A DNA stretch of 64,000 nt from an uncultured Collinsella sp. (GCA_905208635.1 CAJLPX010000006.1:20499-84498); one strand, 5' to 3'; positions 4,776 through 49,908 are shown, counted from the stretch's first letter. The notes: generated by a model from the sequence alone, not told the origin. Program-made: numbers and translations.

Positions 4776-4841
4776 CTTGTGGTCGATGCCGGAGGGCGTG
4801 GTACCATAGCGCGAACGTGAAATCGGAAAAGTGAGGCCCAG

Positions 4842-5399: not shown

Positions 5400-5401
5400 C
5401 C

Positions 5402-5983: not shown

Positions 5984-6026
5984 TTAGTTTGCGCGGTCGG
6001 GGTTCTAAACGAAGGAGACGATCGCG

Positions 6027-6512: not shown

Positions 6513-6518
6513 CCGGCC

Positions 6519-7358: not shown

Positions 7359-7369
7359 GGGATGTGAAA

Positions 7370-8383
7370 TTAATAACGCTCAAAGAAGGCAAGCGCGTTG
7401 TCGCTGCAGAGCTTCTGCATCACGGTCTTGCCGAAGTGCTTGGAGAGCATGTTCTGGAACTCGGGCATCTTGCTGGCATCGGAGAGGAAGGCGGGCACAG
7501 TTGCGCCGTCCCAGTCGCCGCCGAGCGCGATGACGTCCTCGCCACCCAGGTCGAGCCAGTGCTCGATATGTGCCGCTAGCTGGTCGAAGGTGACGTCTGC
7601 GGCGGTTTTGTCGGTTGCGTCGTTGGAAAGGAACTCGCTGCAGTAGTTGAGGCCGACGATGCCACCCATGTCGCGAATGGTACAGAACTGGTCGTCGGTG
7701 AGGTTGCGTTTGACGCCGCAAACCGCACGGGAGTTGGAGTGACTGGCGACGAAGGGGCGCGTGGCGTGGGCGACAACCTCGTCAAAGCACTCGTCGTTGA
7801 GGTGGGAGACGTCGAGTACCATGCCGGCGTGCTCCATCTGCGTAAGTGCCTCGATGCCGGCGGCGGTGAGGCCGGCGTGGGTATCGTGTCCGCTTGCGAG
7901 CGGCCCCTGCGCGTTCCAGCTGAGTGACGACATGAGTACGCCCAAGCTCTTGAGCACCTCGATCAGCGCGGGGTCCTCGGCAAAGAACGTGGCGTTTTCG
8001 ATGGTATGGATGCAGGCGACCTTGCCGTCTTTGAGCGCAGGGCGAATGTCTGCCGCGCTGCGTACGTTGACCATGCGGTCGTGGTTAAGCATGGCCTGGC
8101 CGCTCATGTGCGCCATGATCTGCGCCTGGAAGCGCGCGGCGTGGGCGGTGGGAATCTCGTCGGGGACAAACGTGGCGAAGCACTGTGCCCACGGCGTGTT
8201 GCCGATCTTTGCGAGCGAGATGGCGCAGGCGTTGCCCTTGATGAGGTCGAAATCTTGCGGATGCGTTTCGTCGCCGGGGAAATAACCGTCGGTGCCGGCG
8301 GTAAAGCGCAGGTCGAGATCGAGCGTGGCCCAGCCGATGCGGTCGGCGGTGTCGCAGTGTAGGTCAAATACGGGATATGCCAT
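7370..8383 (-). CDS. Membrane-dipeptidase family (peptidase M19) protein
   Basis: N-terminus MAYPVFDLHCDT, plus VSHLNDE.. and SHSNSRAV blocks. Start ATG 8383 sits behind GGAGGA. Confidence 0.8.
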   Translation of the reverse strand: MAYPVFDLHCDTADRIGWATLDLDLRFTAGTDGYFPGDETHPQDFDLIKGNACAISLAKIGNTPWAQCFATFVPDEIPTAHAARFQAQIMAHMSGQAMLNHDRMVNVRSAADIRPALKDGKVACIHTIENATFFAEDPALIEVLKSLGVLMSSLSWNAQGPLASGHDTHAGLTAAGIEALTQMEHAGMVLDVSHLNDECFDEVVAHATRPFVASHSNSRAVCGVKRNLTDDQFCTIRDMGGIVGLNYCSEFLSNDATDKTAADVTFDQLAAHIEHWLDLGGEDVIALGGDWDGATVPAFLSDASKMPEFQNMLSKHFGKTVMQKLCSDNALAFFERY

Positions 8384-8503
8384 GGTTCCTCCGGTTGCAG
8401 CGTTTCTTTGCAAACTGTCTTTGAATTGTATGACTAGGGTATAGTTAGCGCCATATGTTCATGGCGGCCCGCGTTGTGCGCCGCCCTTATCACGGAGGTT
8501 TCC

Positions 8504-8932
8504 ATGTCCAACCAGGGCAAGAAGGTCAAGACTCATTATCGCGGCACGCTCGACGACGGCACGCAATTCGATAGCTCCTACGATCGCGGCGAGCCGCTGG
8601 AGTTCACCTGCGGCGCCGGTCAGATGATCAAGGGCTTCGATGCCGCTGTTGTCGACATGCAGGTGGGCGAGAAGAAGACCGTGCACATCCCGGCCGCCGA
8701 TGCCTACGGCGAGCACAACCCCGAGATGGTCCTGACCTTCCCGGCCGAACAGGTTCCCAACATCGAGCAGATCGAGAAGGGCATGAAGCTCTTCCTGTCC
8801 ACGCCGAGCGGTATGCCCGTCCCCGCCGTGGTCATCGACGTAACGCCCGAGGCCGTGACGCTCGACGCCAACCACGAGCTGGCCGGCAAGGACCTCAACT
8901 TTGATATCGAGCTCGTCGAGGTCGAGGACTAG
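8504..8932 (+). CDS. slyD: FKBP-type peptidyl-prolyl isomerase, SlyD-like (no His-rich tail)
   Basis: KVKTHYRGTLDDGTQFDSSYDRGEPLEFTCGAGQMIKGFD plus an insert-in-flap region. Start ATG 8504 sits behind GGAGG. Confidence 0.8.
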   Translation: MSNQGKKVKTHYRGTLDDGTQFDSSYDRGEPLEFTCGAGQMIKGFDAAVVDMQVGEKKTVHIPAADAYGEHNPEMVLTFPAEQVPNIEQIEKGMKLFLSTPSGMPVPAVVIDVTPEAVTLDANHELAGKDLNFDIELVEVED

Positions 8933-8935
8933 AGT

Positions 8936-9514
8936 ATGCCCGTACGCTTGGTTTCGACGACATGCTTGGGAAATCTCAACGATCCGTCCTATGAACTCCT
9001 GCTTCGCCGGAAGTTGGGCGGCATCTTTGAGATTGACGAGCTGCTACTCGATTGGGACCAGGCTGATGCGCGCCTGTTTGTGGGCGTGACGGAGCTGGGG
9101 CGCACGGTCGATGTTCGGCTGGATACTGCCGACGGCGGTCGTCTTGCCGACGGCGACGTGCTTGCCATCGACCGTTCGGGCATGGTGCCCGTGGCGGTTG
9201 TCGTGCGCCTGCGCAGCGCCGAGGTCTATTTGATCGAAGTCGACCGCATGGATCCGATTGCGTTCGCGCATGCGTGCTGGGAGATCGGCAATATGCACGC
9301 GCCGCTTTTCCGAGGCGATTCGGACGAGCATACCGTGCGCATGTATACGCCGGTGCAGCCTGTTTTGGGCCGCATGCTCCGGGGCGTCGAGGGTGTTCAG
9401 CTCTCGGTGGTTACCCGTGAACTCGATGCGGACCGGCGCTTTGCGTCGTGTGCGGCGGATGCCGTTGTGAGTATGGCTCCAGACTTTACGATCGTAAAGA
9501 AGGCGCGCGGTTAA
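8936..9514 (+). CDS. UreE-like metallochaperone-fold protein (orphan)
   Basis: GRLADGDVLAID..VVVRLRSAEVYLI..ACWEIGNMHAPLF parallels the UreE pattern G..L..GDvL....V.....cyhlGNRHvP. No His-rich tail and no ure genes are in the window. Confidence 0.4.
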   Translation: MPVRLVSTTCLGNLNDPSYELLLRRKLGGIFEIDELLLDWDQADARLFVGVTELGRTVDVRLDTADGGRLADGDVLAIDRSGMVPVAVVVRLRSAEVYLIEVDRMDPIAFAHACWEIGNMHAPLFRGDSDEHTVRMYTPVQPVLGRMLRGVEGVQLSVVTRELDADRRFASCAADAVVSMAPDFTIVKKARG

Positions 9515-9597
9515 CGTGCGTATAAGTAAGACGGACTTTGAGAGGCAACTATTCAAAGTCCGTCTTTCTGTTGATGAGATGCTGTGGGGGAAAGCAT

Positions 9598-10395
9598 ATG
9601 GGTCTTGAAGGAATCAAGCTGATTGCATGCGATTTGGACGGCACGTTGCTGCATCCGGGGGAGCGCGAGCCGCGTTCCGAGGCCTTTGAGCTCATCGATG
9701 AGCTGCGTCGTCACGGTATCGTGTTTATGCCGGCGAGCGGCCGTCAATATGCGAGTTTGCGCTATCTGTTTGCCCCGGTGGCCGATGAGCTCGCCTATGT
9801 ATGCGAAAACGGAGCCCTGGTGATGAGCGAGGGACGTGCCGTTGTCAAGCGTTCCATGGAGCGTAGCCTTGCTATGGATATCGCGAATGCCGTGGTTGCG
9901 TATCCCCATGCCGACGTGACCCTTTCGTGTGAGGGACACCTCTACACCATGAGCGGCAACGATGCGTTCGTCGACCATTTGCGCTATGAGGTCCACTGCG
10001 ATGTGGCGGTGGTCGACCGCCCCGAGGACATCGACGAGGACGTCATTAAGATTGCCTTCCAGACGCCCGAGGTGGATCAGCCGGCGGCCCTGGAGTATTT
10101 CGAGTGCCTCTTTAGCGACTGTGTCGACGTGATGACGTCGGGAACCGAATGGACGGACTTTATCGGTTTCGGTTCGGGCAAGGGCTCCGCGCTTGCCGAT
10201 TACGGTCGTGCCCTGGGTATTTCGCCCGATGAGATGATGGCGTTTGGCGATAACGAAAACGACCGCGACATGCTCAACGTCGTGGGCCATCCTTATCTAA
10301 TGGAGAGCTGCAATCCCTCTATGCGTGGCATCAACGACCGCGTCCGTTACGTGCGCACGGTCGAAGAGGAATTGCATCGCCTGCTTGCTGAGTAG
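9598..10395 (+). CDS. Cof-type HAD-IIB phosphatase
   Basis: LIACDLDGTLL motif I, SGRQ motif II and GDNENDRDM motif IV. Start ATG 9598. Confidence 0.8.
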   Translation: MGLEGIKLIACDLDGTLLHPGEREPRSEAFELIDELRRHGIVFMPASGRQYASLRYLFAPVADELAYVCENGALVMSEGRAVVKRSMERSLAMDIANAVVAYPHADVTLSCEGHLYTMSGNDAFVDHLRYEVHCDVAVVDRPEDIDEDVIKIAFQTPEVDQPAALEYFECLFSDCVDVMTSGTEWTDFIGFGSGKGSALADYGRALGISPDEMMAFGDNENDRDMLNVVGHPYLMESCNPSMRGINDRVRYVRTVEEELHRLLAE

Positions 10396-10472
10396 ATATT
10401 TGGGACATGCCTAGAAATCTATTTTTTGCTGCAAAGCGCGGAAAGGTGGATTTTAAGGCATGTCCTGAACAT

Positions 10473-37421: not shown

Positions 37422-39101
37422 ATGGCAGAGTTTATCTACCAGATGTATCAGGCTCGCAAGGCCCATGGCGACAAGGTAATCCTTGACGACGTGACTCTGA
37501 GTTTCTACCCTGGCGCCAAGATCGGCGTTGTGGGTCCCAACGGCATGGGTAAGTCGACCCTGCTCAAGATCATGGCCGGTATCGAGGAGGTCTCCAACGG
37601 CGATGCCAGGCTCACCCCCGGCTACACCGTGGGCATCCTGCAGCAGGAGCCGCCGCTCGATGACGACAAGACCGTCATCGAGAACGTGCGCATGGCGTTT
37701 GGCGATATGATCGCCAAGGTCGATCGCTTCAATAAGATTGGCGAGGAGATGTGCGACCCGGATTGCGATATGGACGCCCTCATGGCCGAGATGGGCAAGC
37801 TCCAGGACGAGATCGACGCCGCCGACGGCTGGGATATCGATTCCAAGCTCGGCCAGGCCATGGATGCCCTGCAGCTGCCCGATTCCGACATGCCGGTTAA
37901 CGTGCTTTCCGGCGGCGAGCGCCGCCGCGTGGCCCTGTGCAAGCTGCTGCTCGAGGCTCCCGACCTGCTGCTGCTCGACGAGCCCACGAACCACCTGGAC
38001 GCCGAGTCGATCCTGTGGCTCGAGCATTTCCTGCACAACTACCAGGGCGCCGTTCTGGCTGTCACACACGATCGCTACTTCCTGGATAACGTTGCCGAGT
38101 GGATCTGCGAGGTCGACCGCGGCCACCTTTATCCCTACAAGGGCAACTACTCCACGTATCTGGAGACCAAGGCCGCCCGTATCGAGGCGCAGGGCAACCG
38201 CGATGCCAAGCTTGCCAAGCGCATGGAGGCCGAGCTCGAGTGGGTACGCAGCTCGCCCAAGGCTCGTCTGGCCAAGAACAAGGCCCGTCTGGCTCGCTAC
38301 GAGGAGATGGAGGCCGAGGCCCGCGCCAGCCAGAAGCTCGACTGGACCGACATCCGCATCCCCGTGGGCCCGCGTCTGGGCAACAAGGTGCTCGAGGCCC
38401 ATCATCTGCACAAGGAGTTCGATGGCCGCGTGCTCATCGACGACCTTTCGTTCACCCTGCCGCGCAACGGCATCGTGGGCGTCATCGGCCCCAACGGTGT
38501 CGGTAAGACCACGCTGTTCAAGACGATTGTGGGTCTGGAGCAGCTGACTTCGGGCGAGCTCGAGGTGGGCGAGACCGTCAAGATTTCTTACGTCGACCAG
38601 AACCGTTCCGGCATCGACCCCGATAAGAACCTGTGGGAGGTCGTCTCGGACGGCCTGGACCACATGATGGTCGGCGAGACCGAGGTTCCGAGCCGTGCTT
38701 ATGTGGCGAGCTTTGGCTTTAAGGGCCAGGACCAGCAGAAGCGCGCTGGCGTACTCTCCGGTGGCGAGCGCAACCGTCTGAACTTGGCGCTTACGCTCAA
38801 GCAGGGCGGCAACCTGCTGCTCCTGGACGAGCCCACGAACGACCTCGACGTCGAGACGCTGTCCTCGCTCGAGGCGGCGCTGCTCGAGTTCCCGGGCTGC
38901 TCGGTGGTCATTAGCCACGACCGTATGTTCCTGGACCGCGTTGCCACGCACATTTTGGCGTGGGAGGGCACCGACGAGAATCCGGGCAACTGGTATTGGT
39001 TCGAGGGCAACTTCGAGGCCTATCAGGCCAACCGCATCGAGCGCCTGGGCGAGGACGCAGCCCAGCCGCATCGTATTCACCGCAAGCTCACGCGTGACTA
39101 G
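37422..39101 (+). CDS. ettA: ABC-F translational throttle protein
   Basis: MAEFIYQMYQARKAHGDKVILDDVTLSFYPGAKIGVVGPNGMGKST. Two ABC cassettes with an inter-domain linker, 559 aa. Confidence 0.9.
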   Translation: MAEFIYQMYQARKAHGDKVILDDVTLSFYPGAKIGVVGPNGMGKSTLLKIMAGIEEVSNGDARLTPGYTVGILQQEPPLDDDKTVIENVRMAFGDMIAKVDRFNKIGEEMCDPDCDMDALMAEMGKLQDEIDAADGWDIDSKLGQAMDALQLPDSDMPVNVLSGGERRRVALCKLLLEAPDLLLLDEPTNHLDAESILWLEHFLHNYQGAVLAVTHDRYFLDNVAEWICEVDRGHLYPYKGNYSTYLETKAARIEAQGNRDAKLAKRMEAELEWVRSSPKARLAKNKARLARYEEMEAEARASQKLDWTDIRIPVGPRLGNKVLEAHHLHKEFDGRVLIDDLSFTLPRNGIVGVIGPNGVGKTTLFKTIVGLEQLTSGELEVGETVKISYVDQNRSGIDPDKNLWEVVSDGLDHMMVGETEVPSRAYVASFGFKGQDQQKRAGVLSGGERNRLNLALTLKQGGNLLLLDEPTNDLDVETLSSLEAALLEFPGCSVVISHDRMFLDRVATHILAWEGTDENPGNWYWFEGNFEAYQANRIERLGEDAAQPHRIHRKLTRD

Positions 39102-39110
39102 TAGCAAGTA

Positions 39111-39141
39111 GAAAGGCCGCCAGCAAGGGCGGCCTTTCTTG
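39111..39141 (+). terminator. Terminator after ettA
   Basis: GAAAGGCCGCC/GGCGGCCTTTC stem followed by TTG. The GC content drops immediately after it. Confidence 0.75.
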
Positions 39142-39381
39142 TAGCAATTGCACTGCAGTTATGCCCTGGCTGCTGGTTTGATTCATAATCAAAGTCATCT
39201 CTTTGGGATTAAAGCCCGTTTTTGCTATGAGTGATTTTCTAATTCCGTTTAAAACGTAAAGACGTATTGGGTTACAAGGACATAAGCAAATCGAATTGAA
39301 ATATAACCAGTGCTGTAACGTTACAAAAAAGGTTATAGAATAGGAGTATCTTATAAGTCGCTCCTCTAGAAAGAAGAACAT

Positions 39382-40509
39382 ATGCTTTCGCGTCGTCGTT
39401 TTCTGCAACTTGTCGCGTCTTCAATTGTCGCCTTAGCCGCACGTCCGAAAGAGGTTTTTGCTTCGACGGGCAATATTGATGGTGAGCAGATACAATTTAC
39501 TTCAGAAATTGCGCAAGAGCTTGCCGATAAATATATAAAGGGACTCCTCGGCTCTTCGTATACGCCTTCTGACCCTATTCCTTTTGTGGACGTTGATGGG
39601 TCCCCGCTTGGCTACATTGTTCCGGTTGTGACATTCAATAGAGCCGCGGGCTATTTGGTTTTAGATGCTTCAGATGATGAAATACTTACGGGATATCGTT
39701 TTGGAGACGGCTTAGTCAGCCCTATGGATCGGGGAGGAGATCTTGGTGTTGAGTCTTATTCTTTCAATAACCCAGTCGTAATGATCAATCCATTCGAATT
39801 CGGTGTGCAATCTTTGGACGGTTCAATAACAACAAATTGCGGAAGAACAATCCCGGCTGTTTCCATAGAAGGACGGCCTGTCGTTTTATCGAATAAACCT
39901 TCAAGCTGGAACGATGTCGTAATTTACGCAACTCAAATGCAGGATTACACAGTATCTGGATTTCGTTCCATTTCTCAGTTTATGTCATATGATGAAAGCG
40001 AGATTAAGAGGCTTACTGCCCACTATGCTTGTATGGTGACAGCTTTTTCGAACGTTGCGGAACTGTATGGCATTGCCAATTTATATAACGACCCTTCGCA
40101 ATATATGCAGATATGGAATTACACCAATACCCATGCTCTTTCCGATGAAGAACAGACTGTTCCCGGCGTTGTTTTGGGCGGAACGCCGATATCAACCTGT
40201 GCAACGGGGTTTACAAATTACTGCGCAAGCAGAGGAAGTACTCTTATCGCCCGCACTGTCTCCTCTCCGGCTATCGCGAGCATTCAAAATGAGATTAACT
40301 CTAATAGACCGAATGTTTTACATGCGAGTTTGTACAACGGATCAGCCCATTCTGTAACAGCGGAGGCTTACGCCACACTTACTGGTAAGAAAACTGGAGA
40401 GACAAGGCAGATGATTGGCATAGCGGACGGCTGGAATTCATCTTTATCCTTCCTGAAGTATGATCAGAGCTATTATGCGTGGACTTATGGAACGACTTTT
40501 TCGAAGTAG
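39382..40509 (+). CDS. Tat-secreted putative papain-fold (C10/C47-like) cysteine peptidase with an I69-like pro-region
   Basis: Twin-arginine signal MLSRRRFLQ..VFA. The pro-region GYLVLDASDDEILTGYRFGDG resembles the Spi/I69 pattern. Candidate catalytic residues are Cys (HYACMVTAF), His (GSAHSVTAEAY) and ADGWN. Confidence 0.4.
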   Translation: MLSRRRFLQLVASSIVALAARPKEVFASTGNIDGEQIQFTSEIAQELADKYIKGLLGSSYTPSDPIPFVDVDGSPLGYIVPVVTFNRAAGYLVLDASDDEILTGYRFGDGLVSPMDRGGDLGVESYSFNNPVVMINPFEFGVQSLDGSITTNCGRTIPAVSIEGRPVVLSNKPSSWNDVVIYATQMQDYTVSGFRSISQFMSYDESEIKRLTAHYACMVTAFSNVAELYGIANLYNDPSQYMQIWNYTNTHALSDEEQTVPGVVLGGTPISTCATGFTNYCASRGSTLIARTVSSPAIASIQNEINSNRPNVLHASLYNGSAHSVTAEAYATLTGKKTGETRQMIGIADGWNSSLSFLKYDQSYYAWTYGTTFSK

Positions 40510-40879
40510 GACGATTCGTCTAGCTCTGTCTTTGGTGCTGATGGCTTCATTGGTGGGCTGTTCAACAAAGGAAGAGATATCGCGCGGAGGTTCCGGAGAA
40601 GTGACTGCGACAGACTCAGGTTCATTAGAAATAGCTGGCGGGCATGCCGATGTGATGTTACAAGGAAAAGGCGTGCTTAGGTCGATTGATGCTGAAGACG
40701 CTGTCTGCTCAATAGAGGATTTGAAGACAGGTGAAACTGCATCGTACCGAGTTTCAGATAATGCTGCGAATATGATTGAGTCGATACCGACTGGAGCGCA
40801 GGTTTCTTTTAGATACTTTGCTCCGCAACTTGAGGATGAGCTTGCTTCTCTGGTGTCTATATGCGCCGATGACAACTAA
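40487..40879 (+). CDS. Small lipoprotein of unknown function
   Basis: MERLFRSRTIRLALSLVLMASLVGC has a lipobox (LVGC). The mature part is about 105 aa. It overlaps the 3' end of the peptidase gene. Confidence 0.55.
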   Translation: MERLFRSRTIRLALSLVLMASLVGCSTKEEISRGGSGEVTATDSGSLEIAGGHADVMLQGKGVLRSIDAEDAVCSIEDLKTGETASYRVSDNAANMIESIPTGAQVSFRYFAPQLEDELASLVSICADDN

Positions 40880-40896
40880 AAGGCCTGAATTCAAAC

Positions 40897-40935
40897 GGCC
40901 TCGGATGGTCAATTGGCTATCCGAGGCCGTTTTTT
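40897..40935. terminator. Bidirectional terminator between convergent genes
   Basis: GGCCTCGGAT/ATCCGAGGCC stem with a 12-nt loop, followed by GTTTTTT. Confidence 0.8.
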
Positions 40936-42241
40936 ACTCGACCGGGGCTTCGACCTTGTCGATGGCCCAGGTGGCTCCGAGGCCGCCGTTGGTGTTGCGG
41001 CGAATGCGTACGGTGACTTCGTGGCGTTTGCCGGCCTGTGTGTAGCGCAGGGGGAAGCTCGCGCGGTTACGGCTGGCCTCGATGGTACCGCGCTCGCGAG
41101 CGATCCAGTAGTACTCGCCGACGATGCCGAGGGTGTCGGCGCCGTAGGGGAGATAAGTCGACAGCTGGTGCAGCAGCGGGCTAGGGCAGAAGACCTCGGT
41201 CGCGAAATCGATGGGGAAGTCCCCGGGGATGGTTGGTGCTGCGGAAGCGGGGGCCGGTGCTGAATTGGGGACCGGAGTCGGTGCAGGTGTGGGAGCCTGG
41301 TCACAGGCGGGTGCGGATGCGGACTCAATGACAGGTGCAGACTCAGATGCCGCTTCTGGCTTAGCTATGGAATCTGTCGGTTCCACGGAGATGGACGTGT
41401 CTTCGGTCTCGGTTTTGGCATCGGCCTGCGGAGTGTCCTCTGCCTCGACGTTTGGCTTGGCCTCGACCGGCGTGGATACCATGGTGGTGATGCCGGCGTT
41501 GGCGTTCTCGGGGTCGTAGACAACCGTGAGCGAGATGGCAGGCTGGGGCGCCTCGGGCTCCGGTGTTGCCTCGGCAGCATCTTGATCCGCGAGCTCGTCG
41601 GACTGATTGTCCTCGGTGTTGTCGCCAAAGACATCGTGGTTCTGGAACACGGGCGCCTCGGGCTGGCCAGCCGCCTCTTCGGTTGTCGACTTGGATGCCT
41701 CGTTGAGCTCCGCAGTGGCTTCCTGCTCGGATATGACTTCGGGATCGGTCGTGGCGGCGATTTCGGTTTCGGCCTCTGCTGTTACTCCAATAGCGACTTC
41801 GATCTCTGTCTCGGGTTCGGGTTCCGGCACGGCTCCAACCATGGCTTCGGGCTCGGGACGCTTAACGTGCTTGGGGCGCACGGCCTTCAGGTCCTTCTTG
41901 CCGTGCTTCTTCTTTTTGTAGGACTGCTTGGCGCCCTTGGTAGCCTTGCGCTTGTCCTCGTCCTTGGCAAGGGCGGCATCCCATGCCTCGTTGGCGATGA
42001 CGGTGGCATACAGGCGGCCGCCCTTAAAGACGGTCAGTTTAATGCAGTCGTCGAGTTCCTCGAGCAACTCGCGCGTGGACTCGAAGCCCAAGTCATAAGC
42101 GGCCATGTCGCCGGCGGCGAGCGCCTCCTCGACCTGCGTCATAAACGTTTGCTTACCGCACCCAATCGCGTCGCGCAGCAGGCGATACAGATAGATGTGG
42201 TTGCCCAGCGATAGCGTGGGCCTAACTATTGTCTTGCTCAT
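40934..42241 (-). CDS. Hypothetical protein: structured N- and C-terminal domains joined by a long acidic/Pro-rich linker
   Basis: ATG 42241 sits behind AGAGGAG. The N-terminus (about 100 aa) looks OST-HTH/LOTUS-like. The middle (about 220 aa) is E/P/A/T-rich. The C-terminal domain was not recognised. Confidence 0.55.
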   Translation of the reverse strand: MSKTIVRPTLSLGNHIYLYRLLRDAIGCGKQTFMTQVEEALAAGDMAAYDLGFESTRELLEELDDCIKLTVFKGGRLYATVIANEAWDAALAKDEDKRKATKGAKQSYKKKKHGKKDLKAVRPKHVKRPEPEAMVGAVPEPEPETEIEVAIGVTAEAETEIAATTDPEVISEQEATAELNEASKSTTEEAAGQPEAPVFQNHDVFGDNTEDNQSDELADQDAAEATPEPEAPQPAISLTVVYDPENANAGITTMVSTPVEAKPNVEAEDTPQADAKTETEDTSISVEPTDSIAKPEAASESAPVIESASAPACDQAPTPAPTPVPNSAPAPASAAPTIPGDFPIDFATEVFCPSPLLHQLSTYLPYGADTLGIVGEYYWIARERGTIEASRNRASFPLRYTQAGKRHEVTVRIRRNTNGGLGATWAIDKVEAPVE

Positions 42242-42377
42242 GGCAAATCTCCTCTTTACACACGTAAAGCATCTTACCATCGCATAGCGTTCGCCATGGC
42301 GGCACCCAAGGCAAACGGGCGCGAACCGCTATCGATTCGCGCCCGTTGTACAGGTTGCCTATCTGGGGATGCAGTGC

Positions 42378-43328
42378 TTAGTTGCCCGATGCCGTGCCTT
42401 GGCTCGAGCTGTTAGATGTCGTGCCCAATGTGGTGTCACTCGAATTGCTGTTGCTGCTGCCTGCTGTGCCCGTTCCCGACGTGGTGTCGCTCGTCTGGCC
42501 GCCCGTGCTCGGTTGAGAGCCGTCAGTCGTTTGGCTTGAGTCAGTCGTGCCGGATTGCGTGCCGCTGTTGTTCGCAGAGGAATCGGTGCCCTGCGATTGG
42601 TTTTGGGTGTTCGAGGACGAATTGGCAGAGGTAGAACTGTCTTGCGTATCGTCCGTCTGTGCTTGCTGATCCTGCGACTGGGTGTTGCCATTTGCATCGC
42701 TCTCGGTCGTGCGCGACGACAGGATTGGCTCGGGACGCTCGCCCAGACCCTCACCGGCAGTGGTGATAAGGATGGCGCCGGCGCAGGCGATGACCGCGAC
42801 GATGGCGATAGCGATCGAGAAGACGATGACCTTCTTTTGCGTCTGGCTGCGCTCAGCCGCCGCCTTGGCGCGCAGGCTGTTGGGAGCGACGCGCGCCGTG
42901 GTCGCGCGTCCCGCAACCTGGCGCATCTCCTGCGTGGTTGCGGCGCCACCTAGGTGCTCCTCGACATTGGGCTCAACGGGCTCGTAGGCGCCGGTAGGGT
43001 AGTCGACAGCGGCATGCGTGCCCTTGATTGCTTCGGCGCTGGCGGAGATAAAGTGGCGATAGACCTGCGAGGACACAACAGTGATGACTGAGCTCACAGC
43101 GGCACCAATCACCGAGCCAGCAATGCCGATCTTTGAAGCAAGCGCCACGCTCGTGGCGGCAGCAGCGGCGCCGGCGATGATCTGGGGAATGGAAATGTCG
43201 TCGAACAGGCCCTTTTTGGGCGCGATGGCCATGGTCTGTCCGATGGAATGGTTCTCGTGCACGCCGTTGTTGAGTGATGCCGGCGTCATGACGCGCGTGC
43301 GCGGCGCGTCGGTGTACTTGGTTGTCAT
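42378..43328 (-). CDS. Membrane protein with a long S/T/Q/N/G-rich C-terminal tail
   Basis: ATG 43328 sits behind GGGAGGA. It has two hydrophobic segments, then about 120 aa of low-complexity Ser/Thr/Gln/Asn. Confidence 0.55.
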   Translation of the reverse strand: MTTKYTDAPRTRVMTPASLNNGVHENHSIGQTMAIAPKKGLFDDISIPQIIAGAAAAATSVALASKIGIAGSVIGAAVSSVITVVSSQVYRHFISASAEAIKGTHAAVDYPTGAYEPVEPNVEEHLGGAATTQEMRQVAGRATTARVAPNSLRAKAAAERSQTQKKVIVFSIAIAIVAVIACAGAILITTAGEGLGERPEPILSSRTTESDANGNTQSQDQQAQTDDTQDSSTSANSSSNTQNQSQGTDSSANNSGTQSGTTDSSQTTDGSQPSTGGQTSDTTSGTGTAGSSNSNSSDTTLGTTSNSSSQGTASGN

Positions 43329-43502
43329 ACGGGGTCCTCCCGGTGTAAATCTGCTTCGTTTCGTGTAGCCATCAGGGTACTCACCAGATGTGAATCGTAC
43401 GTGACATTTAACAGATACCATCAACTCATCAAGGGGGCTTGCTGTCTTTGGTGCGATAGCTTGATGCTAAACTGGATTTATGTTTGCGAGGTGGTTTACG
43501 TG

Positions 43503-43721
43503 ATGTACCCGTATATGACATTCGAAGATGGAACCGAGGTCATTCATTCTGACCTGATTACAGATGGCGATATCGAAAAGGTTATCGTGCATTTTGAACG
43601 ACCGACGGCAGAGGGTTTCGACTCCGCTCGTTGTGAGTTGCCTTCCTGTTCGTGGACTGACTGGGAAGGGCATTTTACTCAGAGTGAAAAACGAGCTTTC
43701 GAAGAGTGTCTGAGCAAATAA
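43503..43721 (+). CDS. Hypothetical 72-aa protein (first gene of the AT-rich island)
   Basis: GAGGTGG lies 8 nt upstream of ATG 43503. The product is MYPYMTFEDGTEVIHSDL... No family was recognised. Confidence 0.45.
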   Translation: MYPYMTFEDGTEVIHSDLITDGDIEKVIVHFERPTAEGFDSARCELPSCSWTDWEGHFTQSEKRAFEECLSK

Positions 43722-43821
43722 TTTAGATTAGTTCGAGTTTAGTTCGAATAAAGAAGCTGAATGCGATGACCTAAAGCGTATGCATTTTTAGTATTAGATG
43801 CGTATGAAATGGAGGATGTGA

Positions 43822-44103
43822 ATGGATGAGCTAATAGACTTTAAAAAACGATTTCTCAAGAATGGCGAGCTGGTTTCAATTCCAAAAAAGGAAAGCTATA
43901 AAAGAATCATGCTGCTATGGGCCGTCTCTTTCTTTGAATTAAATACAAGTTATACGGAGCTTCAGGTTAATCGTGTGCTGTCACAGCTCTATCCTGATTA
44001 TGCCGTGTTGAGGCGGTACTTGGTTGATTATGGATTCCTATTAAGGGATGAACGAGGCCTGAAATACGAGGTTAATCGTGATGTTCACGGTATTGAGAGC
44101 TAG
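43822..44103 (+). CDS. DUF2087-like small protein
   Basis: ..IPKKESYKRIMLLWAVSFFE....YTELQVNRVLSQLYPDYAVLRRYLVDYGFLLRD matches the remembered DUF2087 pattern. GGAGGA precedes the ATG. Confidence 0.5.
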   Translation: MDELIDFKKRFLKNGELVSIPKKESYKRIMLLWAVSFFELNTSYTELQVNRVLSQLYPDYAVLRRYLVDYGFLLRDERGLKYEVNRDVHGIES

Positions 44104-45265
44104 CCGTCCGGTTCGGGTCCTATATATTGCTAGAGGGATAAGCGAAATAGGCAATTGGTGTGCGAATATTGCTTTGCCAATGCTAATTTACGAGGTAACT
44201 CACGATGTTTCTGCAACTGCTTTGATGGTCTGCTGCAGATTTGCCCCCTCTCTGTTTTCAGTTGCGCTCGCGCAGCTGCCTCAGAAGATGGGTATCGGGA
44301 CACTGCAGGCCATGAGATTGGCAGACTTAATTCGCGCGGGATTATTCGTTTGCTATATTTTTGTTGATAGTAAATGGAGTATGTTTGCTATTACGTGCGC
44401 GGTATCGCTTTGCCGAACGGTAGAAATGCCCTGCTTTTACTCGTTGTTAAGAGCCAATACGAATAGTATCAATCGCGACGTAATTAATAATTCGTTTGGG
44501 TTCCTGCAGAATTTGATGATGGTTCTGGGGCCAGTTGCCGGCGGTTTTGTTGTCGCTCAATTTGGGGCGGAGGCTGTTCTTGCATTAGACGCGCTTTCTT
44601 TTGCCGCGTCGTTCTGGTTGCTGCGAGATGTTCCGTCGGTTATCGAGGTTAATGATAAAGAGGGAATAAGCAAAAATGAAAAAAACAGGACTGCATTTAG
44701 TGATCTTAGCGCGAAGCACTTGGCAATTGGTTTCCTATTAATCGATATTTCTAGTGGCGTGGCATTCGGCTCTCTGAATTCTCTTTTGCCAGCTATAGCG
44801 CAATTGCAATTTGACTCGTCATCGATACAATACGGATTCCTTCAGAGTAGTCTTACAATCGGACTGTTGTTCGGAAATACAATATATGGTCGTTTAATCA
44901 GTGGTTCCGATTGCGTTAAATCATATTGTTTTGTGACGTATCTTGCGCTCGGTGCGTATCTGGCGTTTGGCTATCGCTATGCGCCTGGGATATCGTTTAT
45001 TTCCCTTTTTATCGTCGGTGCCGGAAACGCCATTCAAGATGTGCTTCTCATAACATCGCTGCAGGATTTGGCGAGAGACGGATCTGAATCGATAAGCCTG
45101 TTTTCAATTAGGGAGTCTTTGCAATCGGTTGCTGTTGTTATTTCAACACTTCTTGTTTCGCTGTTCACGAGCATCGCGATGTTCTCAATTCTCGTTACAG
45201 GACTTGGTGTATTTTCAATTATGATGGTAGTTGTGTTTCAATTGAATTATTTGCGAAAGATGTGA
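44078..45265 (+). CDS. MFS transporter, MFS_3 / EntS-like exporter type
   Basis: Twelve hydrophobic segments. The N-terminus ..RGISEIGNWCANIALPMLIYEVT.. is typical of MFS_3. It overlaps the DUF2087 gene by 26 nt. Confidence 0.8.
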   Translation: MMFTVLRASRPVRVLYIARGISEIGNWCANIALPMLIYEVTHDVSATALMVCCRFAPSLFSVALAQLPQKMGIGTLQAMRLADLIRAGLFVCYIFVDSKWSMFAITCAVSLCRTVEMPCFYSLLRANTNSINRDVINNSFGFLQNLMMVLGPVAGGFVVAQFGAEAVLALDALSFAASFWLLRDVPSVIEVNDKEGISKNEKNRTAFSDLSAKHLAIGFLLIDISSGVAFGSLNSLLPAIAQLQFDSSSIQYGFLQSSLTIGLLFGNTIYGRLISGSDCVKSYCFVTYLALGAYLAFGYRYAPGISFISLFIVGAGNAIQDVLLITSLQDLARDGSESISLFSIRESLQSVAVVISTLLVSLFTSIAMFSILVTGLGVFSIMMVVVFQLNYLRKM

Positions 45266-45272
45266 CGTTGAT

Positions 45273-45866
45273 ATGCCTAAAACGCTTTTAGTATTTCCCC
45301 CAGGATGGAGTCCAGTGGGGCCGTATCTTGCCTTGCCTGTTTTGAAGTCATATCTTCAAGAGGTTGAACAATACAAAGTTGACATTGTTGACTTAAACGT
45401 GGAATTTTACGATGACCTCCTATCTTTTAGACATGTCGAAGAGTGCTTTAAAAGGTATCGGGAATCAAAGGATTCGTTTAGTTCGAATGTCCAATTAACA
45501 ATCGAGTTGATACAAAAGTCGGCACTTAATGTTGACGAGGCAAAAGATATTTTCAGATCGAAGAGATACTTTAATCTAAAAGAAAGACAATATGCTGAAA
45601 ACATTTTTAGAAATGCACTCTATATCATAAATCACGTCTCATATGGAGTTAAATACACGTTCAACTCCATAGATCTGCCCTATGATTATTATTCGACACC
45701 AGAAATAATGAAGTCGCTTGCGGATACCTTGCATAATCCGTTTATTTCCTTCTATGAAATTGCCTTTCTTAAGCGTATTCAGAGGGAAAAAATCGAGTTT
45801 ATTGGGATTTCGGTGAGCGGCTGTTTCCAATATGATTTCTGCAGTTACGTTAGCGAAACTGATTAA
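45273..45866 (+). pseudogene. N-terminal (cobalamin-binding domain) fragment of a B12-binding radical SAM enzyme. It is separated from the rest of the gene by an apparent 1-nt frameshift
   Basis: MPKTLLVFPPGWSPVGPYLALPVLKSYL... ends in ..EFIGISVSGCFQ, then runs out of frame to a stop at 45866. Confidence 0.7.
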
Positions 45867-47595
45867 AGAAGAATGTCCATCTGTTAAACACGTCTCATTG
45901 GGCGGCAATTACATTACTCGTTTAGCAGATGACTGCATGAAAGAATGGCATCCCTTTTTTGAATACATTGATTCGATAATGATGTATGACGGCGAAGAGC
46001 CGCTTGCACGTCTTCTTGAGGCTCTTGACTCTGGTGATGACAATCTCGACTGTGTTCCAAACCTTTGCCATGCTAAAGGTGGAAAGATATATAAAAACCA
46101 TCGGATTGAGCAAACATTTATCAACGATACAGTTCCCGATTTCGATGGCTTCGCCCTTTCTAAATACTTCATGCCTGAGCTAATATTGCCGGTTTATTCC
46201 TCTAGGCAGTGTTTTAATCATTGCGCCTTCTGCACCATTCCCGGTGCTACCGGTGGTTGTTACCGAAAGATGCCTATATCGAGAGTATTTGAAATAATGT
46301 GTCGGTTAAATGAAAAATACGGCACGAGAGTTTTCTCTTTTGTGGATGAAACATTCGAAGGCAAAAGAATGGAGCAACTCGCGGATGAAATAAACGCATC
46401 GGGAAAAACGTTTTTCTGGCATGGAGAAACGAGGTTCTCTCCAACCCTAAGTACAGACGTTTTTAACAAGATATACCAAAGTGGATGTAGGCAGATTCAG
46501 TTTGGCCTCGAGTCATACAACCAAAGAGTTCTTGATCTAATGAAGAAGAACACGAGAGTTGATTGGATTGATCGCAATATCCATGATTGTCTCAATGCGG
46601 GTATTCCTGTTCATCTATTTTTTATGATTGGCTTTCCGACCGAAACTAAAGAAGAGGCTCTGAACACCTTAGCTTATACAGAGAATGTTTTGAATTATTC
46701 AAAACAGGTATGTGGTGTTCCATATTCCACGAGAGGATTTACGAATTTTGGTCTCGTTATGGGGTCGGATGTTTGGAATCATCCCGATAAGTATGGTGTC
46801 TCTGTAATGCCGCAGTCCCAATATGAGGATTTGCGCCTCGAAGTAGATTATGTTTCAGGCACTGGTTTAACTTTAAATGAAGCAAAATCCTTATCTGATG
46901 AGCATCATATTGATTTTTATATGCAAGAGGTCATAAACGGTAGCGACACAATTGACTTGCCCCAGCGGCTTCATATTTCAGAGGTGACCTGGATCCTAGA
47001 TTCTATTCACGCTGTCAGGTATAAGGGACATTTGACCAAAGTAAAGCGACGGCTAACTAGTCTAAATCCAGCTGATCGAATCTGGCTGGATTCCAAGACC
47101 TCTGTCGTGCTCGTTGAGCCATTTGCCTACTTCTATAATTCTGAATACCATCATGTCTATGCTGTTTCCCAGTTGGTATACCATAAGTTGGCCCGTTTAT
47201 TGGAGGCCGATTGTAGCATTTCTCTTATTCTTGATCAGGGCGACCTCGAGCTGACAAGGGCGATAGAAGAACTGTTGCATTATGGATTGCTGAATACAAA
47301 TATCGATGCCGATTATGTAATGCACGATAATGGTTTTCAATTGGTTAAAAGCTCGTTTGTTAAAGAAGTCGGACGCTCAAAAGAGGGGTTAAGAGTACTG
47401 CTGAGTTGTGCCACCCATAGAATGTGTGCGGTTAATGATTTTTCGTTCGCTTTGCTTTCGTTGTTTGAAAAGCCGATTACTAAGAACGAGGTGCGCGACA
47501 TTTTGAAAAAAGAGGGACTATCGACAAGCGAGGAGCAATTAAACAAGTTGGTTGATAATTGCATGAAAGCAGATATACTACAACTGATTAGATAG
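45832..47595 (+). CDS. B12-binding radical SAM enzyme: remainder of the B12 domain, radical SAM core and two C-terminal PqqD/RRE-like modules
   Basis: ISAVTLAKLIKEECPSVKHVSLGGNY completes the B12-binding domain. CX3CX2C is CFNHCAFC (46210-46233). The C-terminal 170 aa or so show two wHTH-like repeats. Confidence 0.85.
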   Translation: MISAVTLAKLIKEECPSVKHVSLGGNYITRLADDCMKEWHPFFEYIDSIMMYDGEEPLARLLEALDSGDDNLDCVPNLCHAKGGKIYKNHRIEQTFINDTVPDFDGFALSKYFMPELILPVYSSRQCFNHCAFCTIPGATGGCYRKMPISRVFEIMCRLNEKYGTRVFSFVDETFEGKRMEQLADEINASGKTFFWHGETRFSPTLSTDVFNKIYQSGCRQIQFGLESYNQRVLDLMKKNTRVDWIDRNIHDCLNAGIPVHLFFMIGFPTETKEEALNTLAYTENVLNYSKQVCGVPYSTRGFTNFGLVMGSDVWNHPDKYGVSVMPQSQYEDLRLEVDYVSGTGLTLNEAKSLSDEHHIDFYMQEVINGSDTIDLPQRLHISEVTWILDSIHAVRYKGHLTKVKRRLTSLNPADRIWLDSKTSVVLVEPFAYFYNSEYHHVYAVSQLVYHKLARLLEADCSISLILDQGDLELTRAIEELLHYGLLNTNIDADYVMHDNGFQLVKSSFVKEVGRSKEGLRVLLSCATHRMCAVNDFSFALLSLFEKPITKNEVRDILKKEGLSTSEEQLNKLVDNCMKADILQLIR

Positions 47596-47608
47596 AGGAG
47601 GTTTCTGC

Positions 47609-47719
47609 ATGGACGTTATTAACAAAGATCTCTTGGAGCAACTGAAAGAGTCTCAGGAAGAGGGCGTCGTGGTAGAAGTGTTCGACTTTGAGGACTACAT
47701 GGATAAATTCTGCCATTAG
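47609..47719 (+). CDS. 36-aa acidic peptide, candidate RiPP precursor (absent from the ORF track)
   Basis: GAGGAGG lies 7 nt upstream of ATG 47609. The product is MDVINKDLLEQLKESQEEGVVVEVFDFEDYMDKFCH. TAG at 47717-47719, and a terminator follows. Confidence 0.6.
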   Translation: MDVINKDLLEQLKESQEEGVVVEVFDFEDYMDKFCH

Positions 47720-47743
47720 TTTCGGAATTTACTTGCCTCGCTT

Positions 47744-47780
47744 AAAGGAGAAGTCGATTATCGATTTCTCCTTTTTTAAT
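47744..47780 (+). terminator. Terminator closing the radical SAM / peptide operon
   Basis: AAAGGAGAAGTCGAT/ATCGATTTCTCCTTT stem followed by TTTAAT. Confidence 0.8.
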
Positions 47781-47907
47781 TAAAGATTTTTTTGGAATAC
47801 ATGCTCTTAGCACAGGTTAGCGTCTCAGTAAACTGGGAGGTTGCTTTGGCTAGTTAGAGATATGTGAACGTCCGTTAGACTGAATCTCAGGGTAGAAGGG
47901 GCCTCCA

Positions 47908-49908
47908 GTGTCCAGATCAACAAGGCAATGCTGCGTTTCGGCTAATAAGAACGACGGCTTTTTGCGCGTGGCGGCGGCGTCGCCGCGGATTCGCGTGGCC
48001 GATGTCGAGGGCAATGCCGAGGTTGCGCTGGCGGCTGTTCGCGAGGCTACCGAGCGCGGCGTTCGCGCGCTGGTGCTGCCCGAGCTTAACCTGACCGGCT
48101 ATACCGCGGCCGACCTGTTCCATAATCGCACGCTGCTGCATGCCTGCGAGGCTGCTCTGGTGCATATCCTCGATGAGACTCGTGAGCTGCCGATTGTCTT
48201 TACCATCGGTCTTCCCGTTGCGGTGGCTGAAAACATCTACAACTGTGCCGCCGTGTGCTGTGCGGGTGAGCTTTTGGGTCTTACGGCCAAGAAGTATCTG
48301 CCCAACTATGGCGAGTTCTATGAGCGTCGCTGGTTTGCTCCGGCGCCTGCGGATCCCGTGTGGGTTGAATTTGCCGGTCAGGGTCCGGTTCCGCTGGGTT
48401 CGGGGCTTGTCTACCGCTGCTGTGATGAGGGTGCCGAGGATCTGGTGCTGGGCATCGAGGTGTGCGAGGACCTGTGGGTGCCGGCGCCCCCCTCGACTGA
48501 GATGGCACTTGCCGGTGCGACGGTGATCCTTAACCCGTCGGCCTCGGACGAGATCATCGGCAAGGCAGATTACCGCCGCAGCCTCATCTCCAATCAGAGC
48601 GCACGCCTGTACTGCGCCTATGCCTACGCGGACGCGAGCGAGGGCGAGTCCACGACCGACATGGTCTTTGCGGGCGAGAATCTTATCTACGAAAACGGCT
48701 CGAAGCTCGCTGCTACCAAGCTGCTCACCTGCGACATGGCGGTGGCCGATGTCGACCTCGACCGTCTGGTTGCCGAACGCCGCCGCTCGACGACGTGGAC
48801 ACGCGCGGACGATACGCCGGAGGCCACGACCGTTGAGTTTTCGTTTGAGGGCGTGTTGGCCGAACAGCCCGTCCTGCGCGATGCCTGCGATATCGACCGC
48901 GTTTTCCCGCGCGCGCCCTTTGTGCCGGCAGACCACGGTGATCTGGCCGAGCGCTGCGAGACCATCCTCGACCTGCAGACCGCGGGCCTTAAGACACGCC
49001 TTGCCCACACGGGCACCAAGGCGGCCGTCATCGGCCTTTCGGGCGGCCTCGATTCCACGCTGGCGCTCCTCGTGACCGTGCGTGCGTTCGACGCCTTGGG
49101 CCTGCCGCGCACCGGTATCACGGCCGTGTCCATGCCCGGCTTTGGCACGACGCACCGCACCAAGTCCAATGCCGAGTCGCTCGCTCGCGACCTAGGCGTG
49201 AGTTTCCGCGAGGTTTCGATCCACGCGGCTGTGGAGCAGCACTTCAAGGACATCGAGCATGATCCGACCGTGCAGGACGTGACCTACGAGAACAGCCAGG
49301 CGCGCGAGCGTACGCAGATTCTGATGGATCTGGCCAACCAGGCTGGCGGTTTTGTCATCGGCACGGGCGACCTCAGTGAGCTGGCGCTCGGCTGGGCTAC
49401 CTATAACGGCGACCACATGAGCATGTACGCCGTCAACGCGAGCGTGCCCAAGACGCTTGTGCGCCATCTGGTGCGCTATGCCGCTGACGTTTTTGGCGGG
49501 CGTATTGCCGAGGTCTTGCTCGATATCCTTGATACGCCGGTGTCCCCCGAGCTTCTGCCGCCCACGGGCGACGGCGAGATTGCGCAGAAGACTGAGGATT
49601 TGGTGGGCCCGTACGAGCTGCACGACTACTTCCTCTACTACCTGCTGCGTTTTGGCTTTGAGCCGGGCAAGATCTACCGCATGGCGCTCAAGAGCTTCGA
49701 GGGCGTCTACGACGCCAAGACCGTCCGCACGTGGCTGCGTACGTTCTACCGTCGCTTCTTTGCCCAGCAGTTTAAGCGCAGCTGCCTGCCCGATGGTCCC
49801 AAGGTGGGCTCGGTGACGCTCAGCCCGCGCGGCGATTGGCGTATGCCGAGTGACGCTAGCTCGCGTCTGTGGCTTGCGCAGATCGACGCGCTCAATCCAG
49901 TTGACTAA
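47908..49908 (+). CDS. nadE: Glutamine-dependent NAD+ synthetase
   Basis: N-terminal CN-hydrolase domain (..LVLPELNLTGY.., ..EVCEDLW..) and a C-terminal synthetase domain with SGGLDSTLALLV. GTG 47908 sits behind GAAGGGG. Confidence 0.9.
   Translation: MSRSTRQCCVSANKNDGFLRVAAASPRIRVADVEGNAEVALAAVREATERGVRALVLPELNLTGYTAADLFHNRTLLHACEAALVHILDETRELPIVFTIGLPVAVAENIYNCAAVCCAGELLGLTAKKYLPNYGEFYERRWFAPAPADPVWVEFAGQGPVPLGSGLVYRCCDEGAEDLVLGIEVCEDLWVPAPPSTEMALAGATVILNPSASDEIIGKADYRRSLISNQSARLYCAYAYADASEGESTTDMVFAGENLIYENGSKLAATKLLTCDMAVADVDLDRLVAERRRSTTWTRADDTPEATTVEFSFEGVLAEQPVLRDACDIDRVFPRAPFVPADHGDLAERCETILDLQTAGLKTRLAHTGTKAAVIGLSGGLDSTLALLVTVRAFDALGLPRTGITAVSMPGFGTTHRTKSNAESLARDLGVSFREVSIHAAVEQHFKDIEHDPTVQDVTYENSQARERTQILMDLANQAGGFVIGTGDLSELALGWATYNGDHMSMYAVNASVPKTLVRHLVRYAADVFGGRIAEVLLDILDTPVSPELLPPTGDGEIAQKTEDLVGPYELHDYFLYYLLRFGFEPGKIYRMALKSFEGVYDAKTVRTWLRTFYRRFFAQQFKRSCLPDGPKVGSVTLSPRGDWRMPSDASSRLWLAQIDALNPVD

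Follow-up and report, generated by a model that had tools for sequence, protein, structure and literature searches.

A probable horizontally acquired cassette for a modified ribosomal peptide, with a frameshifted cobalamin-type radical SAM gene, in an uncultured Collinsella sp.

Several described pathways to ribosomally synthesized peptides with post-translational modifications (RiPPs) stand close to the locus reported here, a four-gene unit in a 64,000-nucleotide stretch of DNA (the window) from an uncultured Collinsella sp. (GCA_905208635.1 CAJLPX010000006.1:20499-84498). Bottromycin biosynthesis needs, among others, YcaO enzymes, hydrolases and a P450, and its precursor has a follower peptide instead of a leader. 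The bottromycin cluster (btm/bot, Streptomyces) combines class B radical S-adenosylmethionine (SAM) enzymes acting on a ribosomal peptide with the major facilitator superfamily (MFS) exporter BtmA/BotT and the DUF2087 protein BtmL, which has an N-terminal ArsR-like domain and raises precursor transcript levels (PMC7113386). The proteusin C-methyltransferases (TIGR03975, PoyB/PoyC-like) are likewise B12 radical SAM enzymes working on ribosomal peptides, and proteusin precursors carry a long nitrile-hydratase-like leader. The streptide strABC-type operons of streptococci are minimal, encoding an exporter and a single radical SAM enzyme besides a short precursor, and are linked to quorum sensing (PMC9389541). 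Their enzymes have N-terminal recognition domains, a SPASM domain and auxiliary Fe-S clusters, and cross-link a motif near the peptide's C-terminus. PbsB (biphenomycin-like peptides) and MpcB (clavusporin) are B12 radical SAM enzymes from RiPP clusters that encode a transporter, of the MFS type in pbs. PbsB needs prior MNIO hydroxylation and FRF/YxY motifs (PMC12257519), and the motif of MpcB is CX7CX2C, its partner a DUF5825 protein.

In this study, we observed that the Collinsella locus at 43.8-47.8 kb encodes, in this order, a DUF2087 protein, an MFS transporter, a radical SAM enzyme (split in this genome) and a 36-residue peptide, and that an intrinsic terminator comes last (Table 1). A preliminary description, made from the sequence, had presented it as an uncharacterised RiPP-type locus, and the follow-up supports that assignment: the locus is very probably a compact, horizontally acquired RiPP cassette with a modified peptide as its product. 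This is carried by peptide-recognition domains predicted to be fused to the enzyme, by a conserved and constrained peptide, and by co-occurrence of enzyme, transporter and peptide in 12 of 12 lineages. The enzyme architecture and the precursor family are new, while the pathway as such belongs with the RiPP pathways already known to use B12 radical SAM enzymes. By analogy, the cassette resembles a minimal streptide-type radical SAM RiPP operon built on a class B enzyme, and it has its DUF2087 and MFS genes in common with the bottromycin cluster.

The lineages were obtained by dereplication at 90% enzyme identity; they span four phyla and include Collinsella, Lachnospiraceae, Dorea, Lactococcus lactis, Fusobacterium, Desulfosporosinus, Paraclostridium and Streptomyces. 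Genome and metagenome scans returned almost only near-identical Collinsella sequences, and the wider diversity comes from single look-ups. The co-occurrence count proposed in the preliminary description gave a clear result: the MFS transporter is adjacent to the enzyme or one gene off, and a motif-bearing short peptide lies by the enzyme, in all 12. A short precursor gene beside a modifying enzyme, conserved with it across taxa, is what is expected of a RiPP gene cluster. Judged by sequence, the cassette family is conserved from Actinomycetota to Fusobacteriota. DUF2087 is present in 5/12 lineages, alone in Collinsella, L082 and L156, and fused to an ArsR-type helix-turn-helix (HTH) domain in L085 or a GerE-type HTH domain in L083.

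In the Collinsella peptide, the leader contains the helix LLEQLKE and the core ends in ...DKFCH; two main alleles, with Ser15 or Phe15, occur in the genus, and the exact window peptide is present on at least 1,000 contigs. The small ORF (open reading frame) is conserved as a family. Its members are short (about 33-51 residues) and have in common a helix resembling 'LLExLKE' in the N-terminal part and the motif [S/T/D/M/V]-[K/Q]-[Y/F] in the C-terminal part, after which 1 to 14 residues follow. Selection was assessed against the L082 cassette, whose enzyme is 60% identical. Synonymous sites are saturated in all four genes (proportion of synonymous differences, pS, 0.77-1.0; non-synonymous 0.21-0.42). 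The last 15 codons of the peptide show about six synonymous changes and one non-synonymous change (proportion of non-synonymous differences, pN, 0.026; pS saturated), compared to a pN of 0.36 in the leader, and the 14-residue core is invariant between both cassettes. This pattern marks a gene that is translated and whose core is tightly constrained, under strong purifying selection. A profile of the peptide family run against 5.8 billion proteins returned only members of these families, all of them unnamed, 'hypothetical' or 'uncharacterised' in every source searched.

The preliminary description had also noticed peptide-recognition-like modules in the enzyme, for which the structure model, fold matches, PqqD matches in relatives and a profile search now speak together. 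In structure models, the last ~190 residues fold into two tandem beta3-alpha3 units (separate C-terminal model, mean predicted local distance difference test (pLDDT) 93.5), so that the enzyme is predicted to end in two tandem PqqD-like RiPP recognition elements (RREs), as found in RiPP gene clusters. The best fold match of this part is the cyanobactin oxidase ThcOx (~205 alignment columns), which we take to carry a double RRE itself; the fold is also matched by TigE, leader-bound TbiB1, TglHI, CteB, PbtF and MccB. The region aligned to the second unit reaches the Pfam PqqD cut-off in the relatives P0072 and P0090 and is at the cut-off in P0027. When the C-terminal profile was run against 1.84 billion cluster representatives, only 37 proteins were retrieved, namely about a dozen full-length enzymes, shorter fragments and stand-alone ~90-residue proteins (9/9 tested are Pfam PqqD). 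The enzyme subfamily thus appears, from its sequence, to occupy a narrow space. Its recognition domains are C-terminal, in contrast to the N-terminal ones of streptide-type enzymes.

These observations bear on a quite different explanation, in which the substrate of the radical SAM enzyme and the pump is a metabolite other than a peptide, and the small ORF lies there by chance. Sequence relatives of the enzyme do include members of phosphonate, hopanoid and aminoglycoside pathways. However, peptide-recognition domains are fused in tandem to the enzyme, a homologous small ORF with a constrained core accompanies it in every lineage, and the cassette has no other small-molecule biosynthetic genes, which leaves this explanation very improbable. 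The preliminary description had named a non-peptide substrate, and lack of conservation of the trio or the ORF, as grounds for giving up its reading; both were examined, and neither refuted it.

The catalytic part of the enzyme was analysed mainly in intact homologues, which have 759-773 residues and 98-99% identity to the window enzyme; one 90%-identity cluster holds 12,784 sequences. Sequence features place the enzyme in the radical SAM superfamily: it matches the Pfam family Radical_SAM (PF04055, 3e-17), and of the three cysteines of the CxxxCxxC motif C299 and C306 are invariant in all 88 relatives and C303 is present in at least 90%, all three being invariant in a 22-sequence alignment. 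The AlphaFold model of the intact enzyme, built on the 88 relatives, has a mean pLDDT of 93.9, and its top PDB fold matches are all cobalamin-dependent radical SAM enzymes (TsrM, OxsB, MgmA, CysS and TokK), which resemble it in the predicted Rossmann-like cobalamin domain followed by the radical SAM barrel. They differ from it in sequence (12-17% identity over the aligned part, template modelling (TM) scores of 0.34-0.42 on the query), cover at most ~550 of 759 residues in the alignments, and in no case reach the tandem RRE tail. The N-terminal Rossmann-like domain typical of class B is thus predicted by fold, with weak support in the sequence: Pfam B12-binding scores 19.5 bits in the intact homologue P0001 (cut-off 32.1; residues 150-233) and is found at E<=1 in 12/22 relatives (best E-value 7.9e-06). 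SPASM gave no match in 22 relatives even at E<=1, and the RRE domains occupy the C-terminus instead; the family scans agree with the preliminary description on the absence of SPASM, lanthipeptide and cyclodehydratase signatures. In the NCBIfam scan no family reaches its cut-off for the enzyme, and PHROGs gave zero matches. The closest curated families by sequence are the RiPP C-methyltransferases (TIGR03975; 111.7 bits for intact P0001 and 104 for the 587-residue window fragment, cut-off 281.85) and the PhpK-type P-methyltransferases (TIGR04479; 108 bits, cut-off 600). TIGR03975 is the best curated match, but it is confined to the catalytic half, and the short precursors described here are unlike those of proteusins.

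From these features we infer how the leader is bound, where and in what way the peptide is modified, and how export and regulation proceed, as follows. The 36-residue precursor would be translated from its strong ribosome-binding site, and its N-terminal 'LLExLKE' helix would be bound by the tandem PqqD-like domains at the enzyme C-terminus. The cobalamin radical SAM core would then modify the [S/T/D/M/V]-[K/Q]-[Y/F] motif near the peptide C-terminus, which is D-K-F in Collinsella. Since the cassette encodes no protease, the leader might be trimmed by host proteases. The MFS_3 transporter presumably exports the product, and the stand-alone DUF2087 protein might tune expression in the way BtmL does in the bottromycin cluster.

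Which reaction is carried out can be stated only tentatively. The most likely option, although at somewhat less than even odds, is that an unactivated carbon is methylated, since methyltransferases make up the nearest curated families. Lys and Gln would offer equivalent methylene carbons, and Tyr and Phe both offer a beta-carbon; as precedents, bottromycin contains beta-methyl-Phe, and polytheonamide and methyl-coenzyme M reductase contain methyl-Gln. Alternatively, the enzyme of the same RiPP cassette might form a cross-link or rearrangement, for example a K/Q-Y/F, biaryl or ether bond that closes a small C-terminal macrocycle. In the invariant pair an aliphatic-chain residue (K/Q) stands beside an aromatic one (Y/F), Lys-Trp, Arg-Tyr and Glu-Tyr links have been described for radical SAM enzymes (PMC9389541), PbsB, itself of the B12 type, forms a C-C link in biphenomycin-like peptides (PMC12257519), and OxsB, a non-methylating cobalamin enzyme, is among the top fold matches. 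However, the best curated sequence matches are methyltransferase families, most characterised class B RiPP enzymes methylate, a ring closed between neighbouring residues would be very small and strained, and Collinsella has Phe in place of Tyr, which argues against phenol-dependent chemistry. We therefore regard a cross-link as less likely than methylation, but as a serious rival to it.

The transporter belongs to the MFS_3 family (7e-12; 45 bits, cut-off 27) and also matches MFS_1 (4.1e-15). The earlier proposal of an EntS-type efflux pump holds as far as MFS_3 membership is concerned, but not as EntS orthology, since the EntS equivalog NF007792 scores 46 bits against a cut-off of 324. MFS_3 includes small-molecule exporters, and it could be considered that the peptide is a scaffold cut to a small amino-acid-derived molecule, following the logic of PQQ (pyrroloquinoline quinone), mycofactocin and pearlin, and exported by the EntS-like pump. 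The conserved motif comprises merely two or three residues near the C-terminus, and one relative (L170) is found with LanB-like and MbnB/TglH-type enzymes, as in scaffold-peptide pathways. On the other hand, the Collinsella cassette has neither a protease nor further tailoring genes, the whole 14-residue core and not just the pair is invariant between cassettes with 60%-identical enzymes, and the variable number of residues after the motif (1 to 14) makes C-terminus-dependent chemistry unlikely. The scaffold function is thus quite improbable, and a RiPP cassette with a modified peptide as its product is preferred. The DUF2087 protein in the window has no DNA-binding domain of its own, unlike BtmL with its ArsR-like domain; by analogy, it is likely a modulator of cluster or precursor expression.

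The preliminary description had treated the radical SAM gene as a single ORF (45273-47595). This does not hold, as an extra A at 45832 splits the reading frame into two overlapping ORFs, 45273-45866 (197 residues) and 45832-47595 (587 residues, +1 frame), so the four frames of the cassette are not all open in the window. The window reads CCAAT[A]TGATT (allele sequence CCAATATGATT), while 81 Collinsella genome loci and ~70 metagenome copies, i.e., the ~150 Collinsella copies examined, lack the extra base and read CCAATTGATT. The insertion lies within the cobalamin-binding domain and outside any homopolymer run. By chance it turns Leu173 TTG into ATG, and the upstream frame stops at 45864-45866; its removal restores ...GCFQLISAV..., identical to the intact 759/773-residue homologues. 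Because the insertion splits the enzyme within the cobalamin-binding domain, the pathway is most likely off in this genome, and the cassette, judged by its sequence, is probably inactive or silent. A sequencing or assembly error, with an intact and functional locus in the strain, would be compatible with the change being one base only, with its absence from every other copy examined and with the intact state of the remainder of the cassette. However, the site is not a homopolymer, and frameshifts elsewhere in this gene are common in the genus, isolates included. In addition, the exact 197- and 587-residue products are recorded on two contigs, and only two (NCBI, Logan, ENA), which suggests that more than one assembly yielded the allele and that it is present in reads instead of being a single-assembly artefact. 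Such an error is therefore unlikely.

Disruption of the enzyme gene is not limited to this genome. In other Collinsella copies (loci L137-L161), +1/-1 indels recur at short homopolymers. A -1 or +1 change in the A6 run 45787-45792 gives a 180-residue product (P0220) on 31 contigs, including C. aerofaciens RefSeq isolates; an indel in the T6 run 45955-45960 gives a 229-residue product (P0221) on 55 contigs of up to 319 kb; and the C5 run (45297-45301) has indels as well. Enzyme fragments, N-terminal and C-terminal, form clusters of 1,694 and 3,554 sequences, compared to 12,784 in the intact cluster. The genome and metagenome scans retain the best full-length matches and so do not yield the proportion of intact to broken alleles. 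Some of the disrupted alleles will be assembly errors in low-coverage metagenomes. Nevertheless, that disruptions recur on long contigs and in isolates points to inactivation that is real and repeated. The homopolymer indels could be decay of a dispensable social trait, or reversible on/off switching. Peptide alleles that are cut or frameshifted within the core were also seen (P0179, P0175, P0183 and P0188-P0199), and an allele ending in ...YMD, truncated before KFCH, is present on 28 contigs. Since there are several such alleles, the precursor gene is also lost in part of the population.

The preliminary description had argued for horizontal acquisition from the AT-rich composition, and this is now strengthened. 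The GC content at 44-48 kb is 39-45%, compared to ~60% in both flanks. The L082 cassette (2590-6511) has the same four-gene order and lies next to uvrB as a 40-44% GC block in a host of 63-66% GC, an independent insertion site; more distant relatives occur in Bacillota and Fusobacteriota. Because of the GC contrast, the second insertion site and the distant relatives, acquisition of the cassette as a unit is supported. Of the best genome matches, 80/80 are Collinsella or Coriobacteriaceae (C. aerofaciens isolates included), and in all 80 the cassette sits at the same site, between a gene for a low-complexity protein and nadE. Since the island is ~99% identical among Collinsella and its flanks 88-93%, it has spread or swept recently relative to host divergence. 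No flanking direct or inverted repeats bounding the island were found, and no integrase or transposase families were present among the ORFs scanned in and beside it.

Table 1. Features of the cassette, precursor peptides of the related loci, and identity of the island and its flanks. Segment identities are means for the window against 80 species-level Collinsella representatives (L002-L081).
Feature	Position	Strand	Basis, sequence or remark
DUF2087 protein, 93 aa (amino acids)	43822..44103	+	Pfam PF09860, 4.6e-20; 72 bits, cut-off 22.4
MFS transporter, MFS_3/'transmembrane secretion effector' type, 394 aa from ATG	44081..45265 (GTG start 44078)	+	Pfam
Radical SAM enzyme, predicted cobalamin-type (class B), with two predicted C-terminal RRE domains	45273..47595	+	773 aa if intact; disrupted here
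Predicted Rossmann-like cobalamin-binding domain	45762..46014	+	Pfam B12-binding sub-threshold and fold matches
Single inserted A, frame-shifting	45832..45832	+	DNA alignment with other Collinsella copies
CxxxCxxC motif (CFNHCAFC), predicted to bind the radical SAM [4Fe-4S] cluster	46210..46233	+	direct reading
First RRE-like unit, beta-sheet then three helices	47077..47298	+	secondary structure of models
Second RRE unit, PqqD-like	47338..47589	+	Pfam PqqD in relatives, profile search, fold matches
Ribosome-binding site AGGAGG of the peptide gene	47596..47601	+	strongest in the unit; direct sequence reading
Precursor peptide MDVINKDLLEQLKESQEEGVVVEVFDFEDYMDKFCH, 36 aa	47609..47719	+	intact in 80/81 Collinsella loci; aligns with 11 precursors of other lineages
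Conserved K33-F34 pair of the peptide	47705-47710	+	family alignment
Intrinsic terminator closing the unit	47744..47780	+	14-bp stem 47744-47774, then T-run
Peptide of L083, Lachnospiraceae-type			MDKQLLEKLKELEEKEIIAESLENQDYVMKYAT
Peptide of L129			...NEDYVVKYST
Peptide of L085, Desulfosporosinus			...EVFDTCSNSTQYV
Peptide of L087, Dorea			...DAMNTTQYSP
Peptide of L088, Lactococcus lactis			...DSEMNTKYC
Peptide of L089, Fusobacterium nucleatum			...SSLTTKYA
Peptide of L169, Paraclostridium plasmid			...QSTTQYCLK
Peptide of L170			...PNSTKYTSPE
Peptide of L171, Streptomyces			...RTSKYALFPEP...
Peptide of L156			...FETTKYAGPVVIKK
DUF2087-to-enzyme segment (island)			mean identity 99.1-99.7%
nadE, right flank			mean identity 92.7%
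Genes left of the island			mean identity 88-91%

In the layout of the unit, all long ORFs called in the window between 43.8 and 47.8 kb are on the + strand. The DUF2087 and MFS genes overlap by 26 nt if the latter starts at GTG 44078 and by 23 nt if it starts at ATG 44081, the start chosen by gene callers in other copies. A gap of 7 nt (45266-45272) separates the MFS gene from the radical SAM gene, and one of 13 nt (47596-47608), with the AGGAGG inside, separates the latter from the peptide gene; these sizes agree with those given in the preliminary description (26-nt overlap, 7-nt and 13-nt gaps). The terminator folds at -18.3 kcal/mol (z = -4.5), and 0/200 shuffles fold equally well. The same-strand, AT-rich four-gene unit with a single terminator at its end is thus confirmed by ORFs, GC content and fold. 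A 72-residue ORF between the flank and the cassette (43503-43721) was rejected as a fifth gene; it matches no family and shows no resemblance to the ORF found at that position in L082. Its conservation is intermediate (96.8%), and it is not in the L082 cassette. A promoter-like site at 47552-47579 (TTGATA, 16-nt spacer, TATACT; 10/12 positions by consensus match) falls within the enzyme gene's 3' end, ~30 nt ahead of the peptide start, and recalls the internal start site of the bottromycin precursor. Promoter-like sites in the region are at chance level (8 found, 9.8 expected), and this one is kept only partly in L082. For these two reasons, we do not claim it as a promoter.

Among the related loci, that of Lactococcus lactis (L088 4042-8743) has the order Rgg regulator, enzyme, 34-residue peptide and MFS transporter; its peptide is present on at least 1,000 contigs and annotated solely as hypothetical. 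Because the Rgg regulator adjoins the enzyme, quorum-sensing control is suggested in L. lactis, a further likeness to the streptide-type operons, as is the presumably modified motif near the C-terminus. The L170 locus (2909-10448) places an enzyme relative within a larger RiPP cluster with a LanB-like dehydratase and an MbnB/TglH-type enzyme, the L171 locus (2420-8782) within one with a radical SAM-SPASM enzyme and a stand-alone PqqD, and at L156 (2398-7319) a second small radical SAM protein accompanies it.

Around the island, the contrast in identity with the flanks points to a spread or sweep of 43440-47800 by recombination. The left flank (40950-43420) is up to 99.7-99.8% identical to some representatives, whereas nadE (47908-49908) is at most 94.1% identical to any, so that recombination in this strain may have had a breakpoint in the island or close to it. 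Directly left of the island, 40934-42280 (-) and 42378-43424 (-) encode long low-complexity proteins, one acidic and Pro/Glu/Ala-rich, the other with a Ser/Thr/Gln-rich tail, without a convincing family match; these two genes are the most divergent among Collinsella copies (88-91% identity). A second AT-rich patch (39100-40900, 45-48% GC) is located 2.5 kb upstream of the cassette and has no evident link to it. It encodes a 375-residue protein (39382-40509) whose N-terminal RRRFLQ might be a Tat-type signal, as read by eye, and a 139-residue protein (40460-40879) with a hydrophobic N-terminus followed by a cysteine, by eye a possible lipoprotein signal.

Several points weigh against a functional cassette of the proposed kind. 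In this window the enzyme gene has a frameshift, and in many Collinsella copies it is disrupted in other ways, so that decay of the locus may be under way. All curated methyltransferase families score below their cut-offs, and cobalamin binding is predicted from the fold and from sub-threshold Pfam matches (19.5 of 32.1 bits). B12 radical SAM enzymes also do other chemistry, such as the biaryl cross-link of PbsB (PMC12257519). The DUF2087 protein has no DNA-binding domain here, and the cassette has neither a protease nor an immunity gene. Product, modification and transcript are predicted from sequence and models.

Compared to the described systems, streptide-type enzymes carry SPASM and auxiliary Fe-S clusters, whereas the enzyme of this cassette has a predicted cobalamin-type N-terminal domain, no SPASM match and an MFS pump beside it. 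In contrast to PbsB, neither the MNIO partner nor the FRF/YxY motifs are found here, and in contrast to MpcB the motif is CX3CX2C and a DUF5825 partner is lacking; for the same two differences, MpcB was rejected as a relative of the Streptomyces homologues. No paper describing the locus was found, and as subscription journals lie largely outside the search, a prior description is possible. In the same searchable literature, which omits most subscription-journal papers, six core peptide sequences gave no match, no paper on Collinsella aerofaciens together with RaS-RiPPs (radical SAM-modified RiPPs) was found, and DUF2087 combined with radical SAM led to the bottromycin paper only.

It is tempting to speculate that the family is a new RiPP class, with short acidic precursors ending in [S/T]-[K/Q]-[Y/F]x(1-3), a double-RRE cobalamin enzyme and new chemistry such as a K/Q-Y/F cross-link or rearrangement, giving a secreted signal or antimicrobial from bacteria that are very common in gut and food (Collinsella, Dorea, Lactococcus lactis and Fusobacterium nucleatum) that is controlled by a homopolymer on/off switch. 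This remains rather unlikely at present. In any case, one enzyme and one 36-residue substrate make about the simplest system in which to learn the peptide chemistry of a new branch of cobalamin radical SAM enzymes, and the natural intact and broken alleles are ready-made controls for metabolomics. For annotation, the enzyme gene is, from its sequence, a probable pseudogene here and in many other genomes. The family is of moderate to high interest, this copy of less. Collinsella is among the most prevalent human gut genera, and because the module is also found in Lactococcus lactis, Fusobacterium nucleatum and Dorea, its product may matter in interactions among gut, oral and food bacteria.

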